DNA of 64,000 bases, taken from positions 1,060 through 65,059 of the forward strand of contig VGNX01000001.1 in assembly GCA_016865855.1 (NCBI GenBank), in the 5' to 3' direction. Source of the stretch: Chloroflexota bacterium (GTDB taxonomy: Bacteria; Chloroflexota; Dehalococcoidia; GIF9; UBA5629). The position numbers and the translations under genes were made by a program. The notes below the pieces were generated by a model. The model did no database searches. It was not told where the DNA came from and saw only the letters and a list, made by a program, of their open reading frames with translations. Shown in pieces: positions 16,137-36,399 of the stretch; positions within the stretch are counted from its first letter, which is position 1; each line of letters begins with the position of its first letter.

Positions 16137-16322
16137 TGTCATTGCGAGATACAGAGTGCCGGGCAATCTCGGTTTTCCCTTTCTGTCGTTGCGAAGAGCG
16201 TGAGTGATGTGGCAATCTCCCTTATACCATTCTGTCATTGCGAGGCATGAAATGCCGTGACAATCTCGGCGGGGGGATGACATGAGATTCTTCTCCTTCA
16301 CTTCGTTCAGTGTCAGAATGAC
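16137..16322. repeat. cluster of short hairpin-repeat units (3x GTCATTGCGAG...CAATCTC type, 1x GAGATTCTTC...CAGAATGAC type)
   Basis: Units lie at 16137..16172, 16183..16220, 16232..16269 and 16284..16322. Track ORF 16092..16301 is just their translation. Confidence 0.8.
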
Positions 16323-21340: not shown

Positions 21341-21532
21341 GTCATTGCGAGGGGCCTAAGCCCCAAAGCAATACCTGCGCTTTCCCGTCATTGCGAGGAG
21401 CGCAAGCGACGTGGCAATCTCGGTGGAGAGCACGGGGCATTGAGATTGCTTCGCTGCGCTCGCAATGACACGAAGACAAGCCACGACCCTTTAGGGTCAT
21501 GCTGGCCGAGGCTAAAGCCTCACCACTACATG
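21341..21532. repeat. hairpin-repeat units plus a degenerate REP-like palindrome
   Basis: Three units: gtcattgcgaggggcctaagccccaaagcaat; gtcattgcgaggagcgcaagcgacgtggcaatctcgg paired with gagattgcttcgctgcgctcgcaatgac; then ccacgaccctttagggtc...gaggctaaagcctc...ctacatg. Confidence 0.75.
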
Positions 21533-26965: not shown

Positions 26966-27333
26966 GCGTGGCAATCCCTATCATGATTTCCCTTAGATTG
27001 CCACGTCGCTAACGCTCCTCGCAATGACATAACAAAAGAAGCCCCTAACAATGACCAAAAGCTCCCTCTCCTGTCATTGCAAGCCCTTTGCCCTTTGTCA
27101 TTCTGAGGGAGCGGAGCGGCCGAAGAATCTCATCCCTTGCCTTGAGATCCTTCGCTTCGCTCAGGAGGGACAAGGTCTGTCCGCCTCGAACAGGTCGTGC
27201 CGTAATTTTCTGACTCCAAAGGGCTAAAACCCCACAACTACGTGTTTGTAATCTGACACAGGTTGTGCTCCAACTAATGTAGCCACGACCCTTTAGGGTC
27301 GTGCCCACGAGGCTAAAGCCTCGTGGCTACATG
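26966..27333. repeat. composite repeat block (both hairpin-repeat families plus a full REP-like palindrome 27277..27333)
   Basis: Contains agattgccacgtcgctaacgctcctcgcaatgac, tgtcattctgagggagcggagcggccgaagaatctc and atgtagccacgaccctttagggtcgtgcccacgaggctaaagcctcgtggctacatg. Track ORF 27045..27308 is spurious. Confidence 0.8.
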
Positions 27334-28600: not shown

Positions 28601-29733
28601 CAAGAGACATGGTTAGAGAGAGCCAAGTGGAAGAGGAAAACATCACCCCTAGACTACAGATGGTAGCCTGGGAGATAACACGAAGCTGTAACTTGTTTTG
28701 TGCTCACTGCCGCTCCTCCTCTACTGCTGGCGCTTATGAAAACGAACTTTCCACCGAAGAATGTCTCCACCTGATAGATGGCATACTGGAGGTGGGCAAA
28801 CCTGTCATAATCCTCAGCGGTGGCGAACCCCTTCTACGCCACGACCTTTTCCAGATAGCAAAATACGCGGTGGAGAAAGGGCTGCGGGTAGTTATGGGCA
28901 GCAACGGTACCCTCATCACCGAGGAGGTCGCTGCTAAACTGAAGACAATCCCCATATCTAGGGTGGCTGTCAGTATAGATTTTCCCACGCCCGAACTTCA
29001 GGACAAGTTCCGTGGCAAAGCAGGAGCTTTCCAGACGGCTATAGCAGGGATTGCCCGATTACGCCAGGCAGGCATCGAAGTCCAGATTAACAGCACCATC
29101 ACCAGGCTAAACGTCAGGTATCTGAATGGGCTGCTGGACCTTGCCCTTGAAGCAGGGGCCGCGGCTTTCCATCCATTTATGCTGGTGCCGACAGGTCGGG
29201 GCAGAGGGCTTGAAGCGGTAGAGATGTCCCCAGAAGAATATGAGCAAACTCTAAACTGGGTTTATGATAAGCAGAAAGGGCTGGGAAACAGGATATTCTT
29301 TAAGCCGACAGACGCCCCTCATTACCAGCGGATAGTCAGACAGAGAGGCAGCAGAGCCGATCCGCAAGGAGTATTGCTTGGTGAGAAATCAGCAACGAAG
29401 GCTAGAAAAGATGCCCTGAATTCTATGACACGCGGCTGTCTGGCTGGGACTGGTTTTTGCTTCATCTCCCATCGGGGCAGGGTGCAGGGGTGTGGCTATC
29501 TCGATGTGGAAGCCGGGAACATAAGAGACAAGAACTTCGGCGAAATCTGGATGAATTCCACGCTGTTCCGTGAATTGAGAGACCTGTCGAACATCAAGGG
29601 GAAGTGCGGCATCTGTGAATACAAGGGGGTCTGCGGCGGCTGCCGAGCCAGAGCCTACGAATCCACCGGCGATTACCTCGAAGCTGAGCCTTACTGCATT
29701 TATGAGCCGATCACATTACGAAAGAACAGGTAA
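28597..29733 (+). CDS. NirJ-like radical SAM/SPASM protein of the alternative heme pathway (AhbC/AhbD type; probably AhbD-like)
   Basis: Has VAWEITRSCNLFCAHCR, SGGEPLL and C-terminal KCGICEYKGVCGGCRARA...PYC. It shares a 4-nt start/stop overlap with the upstream gene. Confidence 0.7.
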   Translation: MTRDMVRESQVEEENITPRLQMVAWEITRSCNLFCAHCRSSSTAGAYENELSTEECLHLIDGILEVGKPVIILSGGEPLLRHDLFQIAKYAVEKGLRVVMGSNGTLITEEVAAKLKTIPISRVAVSIDFPTPELQDKFRGKAGAFQTAIAGIARLRQAGIEVQINSTITRLNVRYLNGLLDLALEAGAAAFHPFMLVPTGRGRGLEAVEMSPEEYEQTLNWVYDKQKGLGNRIFFKPTDAPHYQRIVRQRGSRADPQGVLLGEKSATKARKDALNSMTRGCLAGTGFCFISHRGRVQGCGYLDVEAGNIRDKNFGEIWMNSTLFRELRDLSNIKGKCGICEYKGVCGGCRARAYESTGDYLEAEPYCIYEPITLRKNR

Positions 29734-29741
29734 ACATAAGA

Positions 29742-30863
29742 ATGCCGACAAAGATCGACAATGTTGACAAAAACCTGCTGAACATCATCCAGGCAGAGTT
29801 CCCCCTGAGCCGAGAGCCGTTCACTGCCTTGGGACTACACCTAAGCGTTAACTGTAATGAGGTAATCCAGAGAATAGAGAGGTTAAAATCAGGAGGAATC
29901 ATACGCCTGATAGGTCCCGTTTTTAATCCAAGAAGGCTCGGCTACCGGACTACCTTGGTAGCGGTGAAAGTACCCGTGGAACGGCTGGATGAGGCGGAAC
30001 AAATCGTCAGCACACATCCGATGGTGAGCCATTGCTACGAACGCGACCATGACTTCAACCTTTGGTTCACATTGGCCATGCCTGTAGCCGAGGACATAGA
30101 GAGCGAGGTACACAAGCTAGGCAGCAGAACCAAGGCCGAGGAAATATTAAACCTACCCGCAGTGAGAGTTTTCAAAATAGGAGCTTTCTTTAACCTCAGC
30201 AGAAGTAATTCCCACCTGTCATTGCGAGCTCTTCACTCCACTGTCATTGCGAGCGAAGCGTGGCAATCTCAATCCCTCCCCCCACCAGAATTGCCACGGC
30301 ATTTCGTGCCTCGCAATGACAATAAACATTTTCATCTAAAAGTGCCGGAACCTGAAATCGAATACCATAGCCCGCTCAACACGTGCTCCGACCTGTCTAT
30401 CGTTGACCGGGCTGTCATCAATGAATTACAGCAAGACCTACCCCTCAGTGAAAAACCGTTTGACCTAATATCAGCAAGACTTTCTATGAACGTGGACAAA
30501 TTTCTCAGCCACTGCCAGGCTCTTTTGCAGCGCGGAATTATGCGACGCTTCAGTGCCTCTATCAACCACAACAAACTTGGATTTACGGCCAATGCTATGG
30601 CTTGCTGGAACATGCCACCTGATATAATAGAGGCAGCAGGCAATAAGATAGCCAAGTTTCCGGAGATAAGCCACTGCTATGAAAGGCAGACAAGCCCCCT
30701 CTGGCCTTATAACCTATTTGCCATGATACATACCGCCACCAAAGAGACCTGCCGAGCCATAGCTAACCGGATACACTCAGAGACCGGGCTTGGTAAAAAT
30801 GACTTGGTGTTGCTTTTCAGCACCAAAGAGATAAAAAAGACGAGGGTTCGATATACGGTATGA
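29742..30863 (+). CDS. fused two-module AsnC/Lrp-like siroheme decarboxylase (AhbA/AhbB, NirDL-like)
   Basis: Two homologous modules: DKNLLNIIQAEFPLSREPF...HCYERDHDFNLWFTL and DRAVINELQQDLPLSEKPF...HCYERQTSPLWPYNLFAMI. They are joined by a linker encoded by hairpin repeats at 30217..30320. Confidence 0.7.
   Translation: MPTKIDNVDKNLLNIIQAEFPLSREPFTALGLHLSVNCNEVIQRIERLKSGGIIRLIGPVFNPRRLGYRTTLVAVKVPVERLDEAEQIVSTHPMVSHCYERDHDFNLWFTLAMPVAEDIESEVHKLGSRTKAEEILNLPAVRVFKIGAFFNLSRSNSHLSLRALHSTVIASEAWQSQSLPPPELPRHFVPRNDNKHFHLKVPEPEIEYHSPLNTCSDLSIVDRAVINELQQDLPLSEKPFDLISARLSMNVDKFLSHCQALLQRGIMRRFSASINHNKLGFTANAMACWNMPPDIIEAAGNKIAKFPEISHCYERQTSPLWPYNLFAMIHTATKETCRAIANRIHSETGLGKNDLVLLFSTKEIKKTRVRYTV
30217..30320. 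repeat. hairpin-repeat units located inside the coding sequence
   Basis: tgtcattgcgagctcttcactccactgtcattgcgagcgaagcgtggcaatctc...attgccacggcatttcgtgcctcgcaatgac. It is translated in-frame as LSLRALHSTVIASEAWQSQSLPPPELPRHFVPRND. Confidence 0.85.
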
Positions 30864-33719: not shown

Positions 33720-33740
33720 GCCGCCCACCTAAACCAATTT

Positions 33741-34134
33741 GTCATTGCGAGGCACGGGGTGCCGTGGCAATCTAGGTGGCGGGAGGGTGAGGTGAGATTG
33801 CTTCGCTTCGCTCGCAATGACGAGAAGGGAAAAAGCCCTAAACAAATTCAAAATCACAAATTCCAATGAACAAAACATACAAAAAGCTGTCATTCTGAGG
33901 GAGCGAAGCGACCGAAGAATCTCGTAGCCAAGAATCTGAGTGAAACTTTGAGATCCTTCCCCTTCACTTCGTTCAGGGTCAGGATGACAGGGGAAAAGGC
34001 TCGGAAGTTCAATTGCCAAAGACCAAAACTTCGGGTGTTTCGAATTTGGAGAATTTGAATTTTGATATTATTTGGGGTTTAGTATTTCGAATTTCCCATT
34101 GTAGGGGGCGAGGCTAAAGCCTCGCAGCTACATG
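33741..34134. repeat. composite repeat block (hairpin pair 33741..33821, hairpin pair 33888..33990, AT-rich low complexity, half REP 34101..34134)
   Basis: gtcattgcgaggcacggggtgccgtggcaatct...agattgcttcgcttcgctcgcaatgac; tgtcattctgagggagcgaagcgaccgaagaatctc...ttcgttcagggtcaggatgacag; gtagggggcgaggctaaagcctcgcagctacatg. Track ORFs 33449..33817 and 33729..34019 are spurious. Confidence 0.8.
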
Positions 34135-36320
34135 TTATCTTTTGCGGCACCAAGTGGGTTAACCTGCCAGACAAGATTAAACTTAGCTACCCCGCCTGGC
34201 GGCAAATCGAGCGGCAGCAGCATAACCAGGCAACTCTCCTGATATATCCTTTCTATGCCACCTTCGGAATTGGAGACACTTTCCACAGGAAAACGCCACA
34301 AACTGACCCTTGGCATTGCTGTTAGTTCCAGTTCTATGCCCAAATGCCGATTGCCCAGGGTTATTTGTTCAATATCTGCCAGATCACCCCAAGAATCGAG
34401 ATGATAGTCATCCAGGGTAATTCCCGGTACGCGGTAATAGGCCTGTTCATTATGTCCGCCGCCAAGCAAGTTAACATTCCACTCGCTGCCGAAAACAGCC
34501 TGAATTGATGAGCCACTTATGTTCTTCACCTGGTAGCTTATATCCATCTTCTCTTCTCCAGCCACCAGCCTGATTTCTTTCTGCACCTCAAAAGGCAGGT
34601 TTTTCTGGCTTATCCGTAGAATTCCGCTCCGCCATAGCAAAATCTTCAGTTCATTACCTTTCTTCTCTACCGAGAACTTATAAGGTTTACCGACAAAGTT
34701 GTCCAACTCGCTATAAGACTGATTGGCGAATTCCTCTAGTTTCGTGCCCGGGCTGAAGAAATGGTCAATGAGGCTAGAACGAAGATATTTATCATAGACT
34801 AAATAGCGAAGGGAGTCTTTATCTTTTACTCTTATCAGGTCATGTATGCTGGGAACAGCGCTTTTCTCCCCTGTCTGTTTTTCGGGGGGTGGCTCGGTTA
34901 ATACTCGATGGTAAGCCTCTGGCCTCCTGGCTAGCGTGCTATATAGATTATAGCTATGACGGCGAAGGTCCCATTCAAAAATAGAGCCACCTTCCGCAGG
35001 GCTTAAGTAAACAGAAAAGGCGTCGCCATCAACAAGTAACTCTTCATTGCCATCACCATCAAAGTCGCCCTTTTGCCATTCCCGCCAACTGCGGCTTGAA
35101 CGGAAGATTTTCCCTAACCATGAGCGAGGCTGATGGATTATGCTGTCAGCTTTGCTTTCAGCCTGAACGAGATAGCTGTAGGTGGTTGCTCGAATATCAG
35201 CCAGGTAAATTCCGCCGAAGACACCGTGCCAGTAAGGACAGTTGCATTGCGCTTTCCACAGCTCTTCCAGCCCACAGTCGCCTTTATTGATGGTACGAGC
35301 TTGATAAACCTTCTGATGAACGCGGAGCATTTTCTTGTGCATCCGGTTTATCTCCGGGTACTTAACTAAGAAATTACGCCAGATACCGCTGTACATGAAT
35401 TGAGTTATATTCTGACGCCCCTCGGCTTCAAGCTGACGTTTGAGGTTAATATATTCCCAGGACTTGTCGGCTGGCAGAGACCATTCCAGCATTTCATCAT
35501 AAGAAGCGCAGGGCAAATAAAGTCTGCCTAGAGGCAGAAACCGACAGGCATATTCACCCAGCAGGATAGTCTGCAGCCAATCTTGGTTGGCTTCCAATTC
35601 AGTGAAGAATTTCTCCACCCACCCCTTTTGCCAGCAGTATTCATAAGTCCCCGGCCAGATACCAAATTTCTCGCCATCATCACCCAATATAGCTATCTTA
35701 TTTCCCCTGTCCGAAGCCTCCTTGTCCAAATACGCTATAACTTCCTCCACATCATGCCAAGGGATGGAATAGCGTAGCTGCTTGCTGATGGGAAATACCT
35801 TTACAGAGTAACCTTGCTCCTCGGTAATGTAGTAGCCGAAGAGGTCTTTATCATCTAATCCCACTGCCCTGAAGGCAATATCATCAACCAACGTCCATTC
35901 CACGCCTGCCTCTGCCAGAATCTTGGCCAGGTGCGGCTCCCAAACTCGCTCGGCGAGCCACAGCCCTGCCGGTTTAAAGCCAAACCTCCGATTGACGAAG
36001 GTGCTCATTTTAGCAATCTGCCCCAGTTTATCGGCGTCTGGAATAGCCGGCAGAATAGGCTCATAATAGGCACCACCCATGATTTCCACCTGTTTTCGGC
36101 TTACCAATGCAGCCAGCCGGTCCAAAAATTCGGGGTGACTTTGTTCCAGCCAGTCGATAAGGCAACCACTGTAATGTAGAGAAAGGCGGATAGCTGGATA
36201 TTTTTCTAGCGCCTCAACCATAGGCAGATAGGCTTGCTGGTAAGCTTCCTCAAAAACCCAGGGAAAGTTACCTAAAGGCTGATGATTATGGATGGCCAGG
36301 CCAAGATAAATCTGCTTCAT
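34128..36320 (-). CDS. GH57-family alpha-amylase / 4-alpha-glucanotransferase-like protein
   Basis: MKQIYLGLAIHNHQPLGNF...HYSGCLIDWL...GGAYYEPILP is the typical GH57 N-terminal catalytic domain, followed by a long C-terminal extension. The track start 36356 is a TTG inside a hairpin repeat (MPRFARNDNDGC), so I prefer ATG 36320. Confidence 0.8.
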   Translation of the reverse strand: MKQIYLGLAIHNHQPLGNFPWVFEEAYQQAYLPMVEALEKYPAIRLSLHYSGCLIDWLEQSHPEFLDRLAALVSRKQVEIMGGAYYEPILPAIPDADKLGQIAKMSTFVNRRFGFKPAGLWLAERVWEPHLAKILAEAGVEWTLVDDIAFRAVGLDDKDLFGYYITEEQGYSVKVFPISKQLRYSIPWHDVEEVIAYLDKEASDRGNKIAILGDDGEKFGIWPGTYEYCWQKGWVEKFFTELEANQDWLQTILLGEYACRFLPLGRLYLPCASYDEMLEWSLPADKSWEYINLKRQLEAEGRQNITQFMYSGIWRNFLVKYPEINRMHKKMLRVHQKVYQARTINKGDCGLEELWKAQCNCPYWHGVFGGIYLADIRATTYSYLVQAESKADSIIHQPRSWLGKIFRSSRSWREWQKGDFDGDGNEELLVDGDAFSVYLSPAEGGSIFEWDLRRHSYNLYSTLARRPEAYHRVLTEPPPEKQTGEKSAVPSIHDLIRVKDKDSLRYLVYDKYLRSSLIDHFFSPGTKLEEFANQSYSELDNFVGKPYKFSVEKKGNELKILLWRSGILRISQKNLPFEVQKEIRLVAGEEKMDISYQVKNISGSSIQAVFGSEWNVNLLGGGHNEQAYYRVPGITLDDYHLDSWGDLADIEQITLGNRHLGIELELTAMPRVSLWRFPVESVSNSEGGIERIYQESCLVMLLPLDLPPGGVAKFNLVWQVNPLGAAKDNM

Positions 36321-36326
36321 GCATCC

Positions 36327-36399
36327 GTCATTGTCATTGCGAGCGAAGCGTGGCAATCTCTGAGATTGCTTCGGGGGCTTGCGCCCCCTCGTAATGACA
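36327..36399. repeat. inverted pair of GTCATTGCGAG...CAATCTC units
   Basis: gtcattgtcattgcgagcgaagcgtggcaatctc tgagattgcttcgggggcttgcgccccctcgtaatgacag. Confidence 0.8.

Follow-up and report, generated by a model that had tools for sequence, protein, structure and literature searches.

REP, BIME and REPIN elements are lineage-specific extragenic palindromes with a GTAG-like head, and they are mobilised by RAYT (Y1) transposases. Palindromic repeats are also found inside genes: according to a review summarising Ogata et al. 2000 (PMC10969869), the Rickettsia palindromic elements (RPEs) are short palindromic repeats located in frame in housekeeping or metabolic genes of Rickettsia, where they add extra residues at tolerant places and leave the gene functional, and nearly half of them are intragenic. 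Another described type, the NTS/SRM hairpin repeats (NTS = CGTCATTCCCGCGMAVGCGGGAATCYRG), flank the genes of small GIY-YIG Ssn nucleases and are bound and cut as single-stranded DNA (ssDNA) (PMC11893778). In this work, we have analysed a hairpin-repeat block that is read in frame within the linker of a predicted fused siroheme decarboxylase (AhbA/B, NirDL-like), encoded at 29742..30863 (+ strand) of a 64,000-nt stretch of contig VGNX01000001.1 from a Chloroflexota bacterium; this whole stretch is called the window below. Fused AhbAB/NirDL enzymes are already known, including the fused AhbAB of non-methanogen archaea (PMC3942049), and in some organisms AhbA and AhbB act as separate subunits (PMC3942049; PDB 4CZD). 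We put at roughly 0.8 the probability that the decarboxylase was ancestrally fused and that the repeat block was inserted in frame into its existing linker, as a tolerated selfish or passenger element and not as the origin of the fusion.

The fused gene and the repeat block in its linker

The open reading frame (ORF) 29742..30863 encodes 373 aa. It contains two stretches each of the Pfam families NirdL-like_HTH (PF22451) and AsnC_trans_reg2 (PF17805), and PDB 4CH7, a fused NirD-like protein, matches its residues 10–150 and 211–371 (E 4.4e-67). The separate AhbA and AhbB chains of 4CZD divide in the same way, with chain A similar to the first half and chain B to the second. Module 1 (AhbA/NirD-like, residues 1–150, 29742..30191, + strand) corresponds to 4CH7 residues 6–147 and to 4CZD_A, and is folded in the AlphaFold model; module 2 (AhbB/NirL-like, residues 211–371, 30372..30854, + strand) corresponds to 4CH7 residues 161–319 and to 4CZD_B. 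Since these matches flank the repeat segment on either side, the segment lies exactly between both modules. The gene stands in a heme-synthesis context, with two radical SAM/SPASM genes upstream and a SirC-like precorrin-2 dehydrogenase, HemA and HemC downstream, and this operon order is the same in 5 related contigs. Only one match to the decarboxylase is found in its own genome, i.e., the gene is single-copy. From its sequence likeness, the protein is predicted to convert siroheme to didecarboxysiroheme. As to the start codon, two relatives (P0002 and P0003) begin the decarboxylase 8 codons further upstream (MKEQVNIR-MPTK; 29718–29744 in the window). Because their upstream ATG reads ACG in the window, ATG 29742, which comes just after the stop codon of the radical SAM gene in front of it, is the first usable start here.

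Across 30217–30320 the frame is translated without a stop as LSLRALHSTVIASEAWQSQSLPPPELPRHFVPRND. The exact 11-mer core GTCATTGCGAG occurs at 30218 (+), 30243 (+) and 30310 (−), with inner arms at 30259–30267 and 30290–30298. Relative to the native repeat-free linker, the in-frame insertion measures ~126 nt (30208..30333, + strand), its boundaries being uncertain by a few nt; a gap of the same size separates the relatives P0011 and P0046. It has two parts. One is a solo core, or terminal repeat, CTGTCATTGCGAGC (30216..30229, + strand; direct repeat D1, found as a core match), which is translated as LSLRA. The other is a complete 81-nt inverted doublet (30241..30321, + strand), recognised from the inverted repeats I2 and I3, its ssDNA fold and its paralogues. 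The doublet consists of a short arm at 30241–30270 (unit GTCATTGCGAGCGAAGCGTGGCAATCTC), a C-rich spacer at 30271–30289 and an inverted long arm at 30290–30321. The repeat has terminal inverted repeats, TGTCATTGCGAG and CTCGCAATGACA, of 12 nt, which are 100% complementary. Downstream of the insertion, the rest of the native (type A) linker, ...VPEPEIEYHSPLNTCSDLSIV (30334..30404, + strand), aligns with the repeat-free linkers of P0045, P0046 and P0098.

The segment folds stably. As RNA, it reaches −40.1 kcal/mol (z −5.5), and 0 of 200 shuffles are as stable; the 81-nt doublet alone as ssDNA reaches −23 kcal/mol (z −6.6). In Rfam, no family reached the gathering threshold over the whole window, and a permissive search of 30100–30450 gave noise only. 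Read from the sequence, the repeat unit is free of stops in 5 of 6 frames, and thus its survival in frame is not surprising. The first-pass annotation of this DNA had described the segment as intergenic-type hairpin repeats read in frame as the inter-module linker, made of units that otherwise occur between genes only and placing a potentially strong hairpin in mid-gene. The ORF, the Pfam and PDB matches and the core positions agree with this description, as do the folding energies, and 122 of the 123 clusters of the genome do lie outside genes.

We have then compared the gene with its counterparts in related genomes (the 40 nearest species, 22 of which have the gene, or 23 genomes counting the window's own). 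In all 23, one stop-free frame of 316–380 aa runs over both halves, and the single split case is due solely to a contig break. In a search of 5.8 billion proteins, 5601 homologues fall in the length range, and both modules are present in all of the 120 matches listed, most of which are 329–335 aa long and come from Chloroflexota/Dehalococcoidia metagenome-assembled genomes (MAGs). In most orthologs, the linker is homologous, 28 residues long and repeat-free (e.g., GGSYASMPNMVAPNNRLSNIDSELSPT). This is the case even for P0003, whose two modules are 95.5–97% identical to those of the window at the nucleotide level. The linker takes 225 nt in the window vs 99 nt in repeat-free orthologs, and the native tail is kept downstream of the insert. 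In addition, when P0011, which has the insert as in the window, is aligned with its repeat-free sister P0046, there is a single clean 126-nt in-frame gap in the native linker. Overall, the fusion is ancestral and older than the repeat, and the repeat was inserted, relative to the repeat-free sisters, into a linker that already existed.

Evolution of the linker and competing explanations

A forward unit read in frame 2 gives SLRAKRGNL and a reverse unit gives ...DCFV.HAPRND, and linkers derived from the repeat in this manner are found in many orthologs. For instance, in one well-supported clade (33 sequences) the linkers are 30 residues long, of the form SLRAKRGNLS.APRN.NKLS and at every stage of decay; this is a case of an old insertion that has turned into ordinary linker sequence. 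In a tree built on the domain columns only, repeat and repeat-free linker types are intermixed, and well-supported branches force at least 9 changes of linker type. Opposite types meet as sisters in, for example, P0037/P0050 and P0023/P0028 (support 100 in each) and P0011/P0046. The approximately unbiased (AU) test, with groups that were named after the tree had already been seen, rejects a single clade in three cases: the 126-nt insert carriers (p 0.0027), the full set of clear repeat linkers (p 0.00026) and the subset of these within the window's own clade (p 3.8e-5). On the other hand, all repeat linkers have the same left junction, AAYTCCCAC followed by CTGTCATTGCGAG, and the same right junction, CTCGCAATGACA followed by ATAAAC, which indicates a single origin.

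Identity at the DNA level also changes abruptly along the gene, and the conservation of the insert is anomalous. Between the window and P0003, the domains are 95.5–97% identical, while the homologous linker tail is only 48% identical. Between the window and P0011, the domains are 76–78% identical (synonymous substitution rate dS 0.82, proportion of synonymous differences pS 0.50) and the native linker tail 60%, while the repeat is identical at 98 of 104 positions (94%). That is, the insert has diverged by 0.058, ~9 times below the synonymous difference of 0.50, and in the 6.2-kb operon alignment of the two (79% identical overall) it is the most conserved 100-nt stretch. All 6 differences in the insert fall outside the predicted stems. 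P0059, with 83% identity to P0011 in the domains, is nearer to it there than the window is, and its insert shows the same architecture but has decayed, with 84 of 103 positions identical to P0011. In P0002, whose domains share 96% identity with those of the window, the identical junctions enclose a 63-nt doublet without a spacer, which is the other standard class, and P0012 and P0007 resemble internal-deletion derivatives. These results establish that linker type and domain tree are in conflict and that the conservation of the insert is anomalous.

The site of insertion appears to be a permissive one. In the AlphaFold model (of moderate quality, with a mean pLDDT of 60.5 from a 25-sequence alignment), both modules are folded, while residues 141–216 are coil without secondary structure at pLDDT <50 (26–29 over 160–210). 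Judging from this model, the short and poorly constrained linker is probably disordered, and the insert would be tolerated there on structural grounds. The domains of insert carriers show dN/dS values of 0.19–0.35, i.e., they are under purifying selection. The insert itself would be a neutral passenger.

Based on the above analyses, we propose the following course. At the start, the two modules would already have been joined by a short flexible linker, and a ~126-nt block made of the solo terminal repeat and the complete 81-nt inverted doublet would have entered this linker in frame. The insertion could survive because its length is a multiple of three, its unit is stop-free in 5 of 6 frames, and the ~42 flexible residues that it adds fall where the protein can bear them. 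The repeat-bearing linker should then be one allele class, which probably descends from one insertion, since all repeat alleles share the left and right junctions. Later, it would have been remodelled by internal deletions and by a swap of element class, and alleles may have passed from one lineage to another through recombination, for which the conserved repeat cores or the conserved domain flanks would serve as anchors. We thus infer that a single insertion took place and that the elements then turned over, with lateral exchange of the linker or of a repeat patch; recombination is the presumed route, and an enzyme is presumed to spread the repeats. It is possible, if rather doubtful, that the linker acts as a laterally exchanged cassette, in which the conserved cores would be portable homology anchors or nuclease/recombination hot spots, so that ~100-nt patches could be swapped between species ~20% diverged, even inside a single-copy essential gene. 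Such an exchange, if real, would account for the most conserved stretch of the operon as well as for the conflict of linker type with gene tree. In a stronger version, the hairpin may be selectively retained for an action on ssDNA or mRNA.

Several points weigh against an insertion of a selfish or passenger element. Neither 6 copies in the window nor the P0011/P0046 junction show a consistent target-site duplication. RAYT/Y1_Tnp (PF01797) has 0 matches in the own genome, while control genomes did match, and the genome has no small GIY-YIG gene adjoining the repeats either, so neither type of mobilising enzyme is seen in it. The 94% conservation of the insert could instead mean selection on the hairpin, in which case it is not a purely neutral passenger. 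Chimerism at repeats is, in principle, possible in metagenome contigs. That the frame is translated through the insert into a ~42-kDa product is deduced from its being open and conserved. The post hoc naming of the AU groups and the moderate AlphaFold model, mentioned above, belong here as well.

Other explanations have also been weighed. In the first-pass annotation, the fusion had been traced to separate ahbA-like and ahbB-like genes whose spacer, filled with repeats, turned into an open frame. A read-through of this kind is conceivable, because elsewhere the repeats lie between genes and 5 of the unit's 6 frames are open. However, the gene is fused in every related genome having it, most fused orthologs are repeat-free, the native linker persists beside the insert, and fused AhbAB/NirDL enzymes are widespread and already known (PMC3942049). 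A fusion born from a spacer is therefore contradicted, and we consider it highly improbable. The same annotation had offered a separate translation of module 2 from GTG 30342, and termination or processing at the hairpin might likewise give two cistrons. A strong predicted hairpin and the existence of AhbA and AhbB as separate subunits in some organisms (4CZD; PMC3942049) would fit two proteins, but a stop in the linker is absent from all of the >120 orthologs, no ortholog has a start or Shine-Dalgarno sequence there, and in the window no Shine-Dalgarno sequence is visible before GTG 30342. Moreover, no intrinsic terminator was found at the hairpin on the + strand, and repeat-free orthologs are also without an internal start signal, so two proteins are very unlikely. 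As for a repeat mis-assembled into the gene, repeats are able to confuse metagenome assemblers. Two independent assemblies (JGI 3300032020 and ENA ERZ27247703), however, carry the identical 104 nt (104/104) in the same context and in frame, which makes a sequencing or assembly error unlikely. With a 94% identical copy in an NCBI MAG and with reading frame and flanks intact, such an artefact is hardly credible.

In a purely vertical history, one ancient insertion would be followed by many independent precise losses without lateral exchange. The common junctions of all repeat-type linkers do argue for a single origin, but this history requires at least 9 state changes on the domain tree. Furthermore, several repeat alleles have lost the native tail (in the P0037/P0050 and P0023/P0028 pairs), and therefore loss cannot recreate the homologous 28-residue linker of their sisters. 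Neither the 48% identity of the linker tail between the window and P0003 beside domains 95.5–97% identical, nor the ~9-fold lower divergence of the window–P0011 insert, fits a purely vertical history, which we regard as improbable. It is unlikely, too, that the insert is selected for a function of the nucleic acid, whether as an mRNA hairpin that tunes the heme operon or as an ssDNA hairpin that an Ssn-type nuclease or recombination would use as target or anchor. In its favour are the position of the insert as the most conserved 100 nt of the operon relative to P0011, the restriction of all 6 differences to sites outside the stems, the compensatory inner-stem changes in the family, the retention of the core across the order and of a 28-mer across phyla, and the modulation of transformation by NTS hairpins in Neisseria (PMC11893778). 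Yet most orthologs, including the 95.5–97% identical P0003, are without the insert, the copy of P0059 is decaying, a large clade has a repeat-derived linker that drifts as ordinary protein sequence, and the own genome has no ssn-like gene. Independent insertion of an active or abundant master copy was tried as well: among 241 million metagenome records the spacer-specific pattern is only on the P0001 contig, and a linker-only search of the 5.8 billion proteins finds P0001 and P0011 only. As window-type spacer and linker peptide are so rare, insertion from a master copy is unlikely.

The repeat family in the window, the genome and beyond

The family has the core GTCATTGCGAG and the tail GGCAATCTC, and its units run in the order GTCATTGCGAG, variable inner hairpin, GTGGCAATCTC. 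In the window, 14 cores (≤1 mismatch) are found vs 0.89 expected, and 0 of 100 shuffles reach 14; the 2.0-Mb genome holds 125 exact cores vs ~0.9 expected. The form TGTC-ATTGC...GCAAT-C is seen in 54 full units of the genome, and the inner stems show compensatory changes among copies (GGCAC/GTGCC, GGCAT/ATGCC, GGTA/TACC). The 123 clusters genome-wide include 45 inverted doublets in two size classes, i.e., ~63–66 nt without a spacer and ~76–95 nt with a C/T-rich spacer, and the linker doublet is of the spacer class. The linker cluster is the sole one with exact units deep in a long ORF. Eleven other core matches lie in ORFs of the genome; these are either single one-mismatch chance cores without a unit, or they are located upstream of the real start. 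Full-length intergenic paralogues of the linker doublet, with 83–86% identity, are found at C32:11476-11566 and C1:134195-134277 in the genome and at 33740–33821 in the window.

The window contains five intergenic members of the family. Clusters lie at 16138..16270, at 21341..21469, where an 83-nt doublet is included, and at 27000..27127, where one sister-family unit (GTCATTCTGAG...GAAGAATCTC, 27093–27127) is added. The full-length paralogue of the insert (33741..33821) is an 81-nt doublet in the opposite orientation, and a 66-nt doublet of the spacer-less class is at 36333..36398. The last one overlaps the first codons of a mechanically listed TTG-start ORF (34128..36356, − strand), whose true start is probably further downstream.

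At the level of the order, 36 of 41 genomes carry the core, in 1–178 copies, with a reversed-sequence control near zero. The exact 28-mer GTCATTGCGAGCGAAGCGTGGCAATCTC (window 30243–30270) is found letter for letter in at least 119 stretches from many phyla. Its hosts include Dehalococcoidia, SAR202, Nitrospirota, Bacteroidota (the cultured Mucilaginibacter, Formosa and Sinomicrobium), Gammaproteobacteria, Clostridia, Aminicenantes, Saccharibacteria, Planctomycetota, Sulfurimonas and Nostoc. In two of these stretches the 28-mer is in frame in a gene, with Pfam matches on both sides of it: a Glucosamine_iso/6-phosphogluconolactonase gene of a Gammaproteobacteria MAG (L159:1138-1165, − strand) and an ECF-transporter S-component gene of a Dehalococcoidia MAG (L133:3188-3215). 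A literature search for the core sequence or the repeat-derived peptides returned chance matches only.

Repeat units also disturb gene calling. Upstream of orthologous genes (L043:2700-3000 and P0009), they give spurious N-terminal extensions or shifted called starts. P0009 opens with ~60 residues of translated repeat (CHSEGAERPKNL...), and the called start of P0059 is truncated. For annotation, predicted proteins that contain peptides such as SLRAKRGNL, VIASEAWQS or PRND can be taken to include translated repeats.

Comparison with known repeats and enzymes

The locus offers a natural and datable case of selfish hairpin repeats entering proteins, in which alleles with and without the repeat of a single-copy essential gene differ by 3–4% outside the linker. 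Remodelled versions stand side by side, from the 126-nt composite through the 63-nt doublet and the single unit to decayed remnants at the protein level only. The inter-domain linker of a fusion protein thereby behaves as an intergenic spacer for such elements, and repeat-derived peptides can become ordinary linker, as in the whole clade with drifting SLRAKRGNL...APRN.

Among fused siroheme decarboxylases, the closest are NirDL of Hydrogenobacter thermophilus (PDB 4CH7/4CZC) and the archaeal AhbAB (PMC3942049). The window gene likewise has two helix-turn-helix/AsnC-like modules per chain, and its operon contains AhbC/D-like radical SAM genes. The difference is in the linker, which has 60–70 residues in the window because of the repeat, vs ~13–28 in the described enzymes; that of 4CH7 is ~13 residues in the PDB comparison.

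Like REP, BIME and REPIN elements, the window repeats are dispersed and extragenic, have conserved heads and covarying stems, and form inverted doublets (45) that make long hairpins. Their head is GTCATT, however, and not GTAG-like, and an exact 28-mer across many phyla is unlike the lineage-specific REPs. With MITEs (transposable elements of the miniature inverted-repeat type), they share the 12-nt, fully complementary terminal inverted repeats.

The likeness to the NTS/SRM repeats is closer in sequence. Both have a YGTC head and a palindrome ATT...AAT followed by C (NTS CGTCATTCCCGCGMAVGCGGGAATCYRG vs window unit TGTCATTGCGAGCGAAGCGTGGCAATCTCG), a variable loop, a mostly intergenic location and hundreds of copies. 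On the other hand, the stem sequence differs, the window genome is without such a GIY-YIG gene, and the published degenerate SRM pattern HGTCWYN(0-2)YYVSBRH... matches the NTS control and 0 of the 3 unit types of this genome. In 4 of 119 distant loci, the distance between a unit and a single-domain GIY-YIG gene of ~95 aa (Pfam E 1e-13 to 1e-17) is 160 nt at most. Small GIY-YIG genes are found in 19 of the 41 relatives and in 9 of 13 same-genus genomes. In one of the latter (G003), GTCATTGCGAG units flank the GIY-YIG gene (L167:1495-1779, encoding 95 aa), with cores 40–109 nt away, and in other relatives (G039, G004, G010; L164, L166, L169) small GIY-YIG genes have the sister family GTCATTCTGAG...GAAGAATC on their flanks, an indication that there are several repeat/nuclease pairs in this order. 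In an unclassified MAG (L064:1460-2003), six tandem 28-nt units with a 34-nt period are located directly upstream of a small GIY-YIG gene. Copy number shows no relation to an ssn-like gene among the 41 relatives (e.g., G027 has 178 cores and no gene). The own genome, in an assembly 91% complete, has UvrC and three other GIY-YIG proteins, none of them near repeats and none Ssn-like. Its repeats (125 cores, 45 doublets) are thus either orphans, or their GIY-YIG gene lies in the missing 9% of the assembly. By analogy, the window repeat probably works like the SRM hairpins and is related to them, with the degenerate pattern unmatched. The recently described NTS/SRM-Ssn type of hairpin repeat would then extend to Dehalococcoidia-like bacteria and into coding sequence.

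In their relation to a coding sequence, RPEs and intragenic MITEs are the nearest counterparts. As with these, the window repeat is palindromic, dispersed, placed in frame in a metabolic gene, absent from orthologs and located at a structurally permissive site. It differs from RPEs in its host, a Dehalococcoidia-like member of Chloroflexota, in an unrelated repeat sequence, and in that 1 of 123 clusters is intragenic vs nearly half of the RPEs (review PMC10969869). Its site is the inter-module linker of a fusion protein, and the insert has been remodelled and apparently exchanged between lineages. In-frame palindromic insertion is thus already known from Rickettsia, and what is added here is the dynamics of the linker alleles and the anomalous conservation of the insert.

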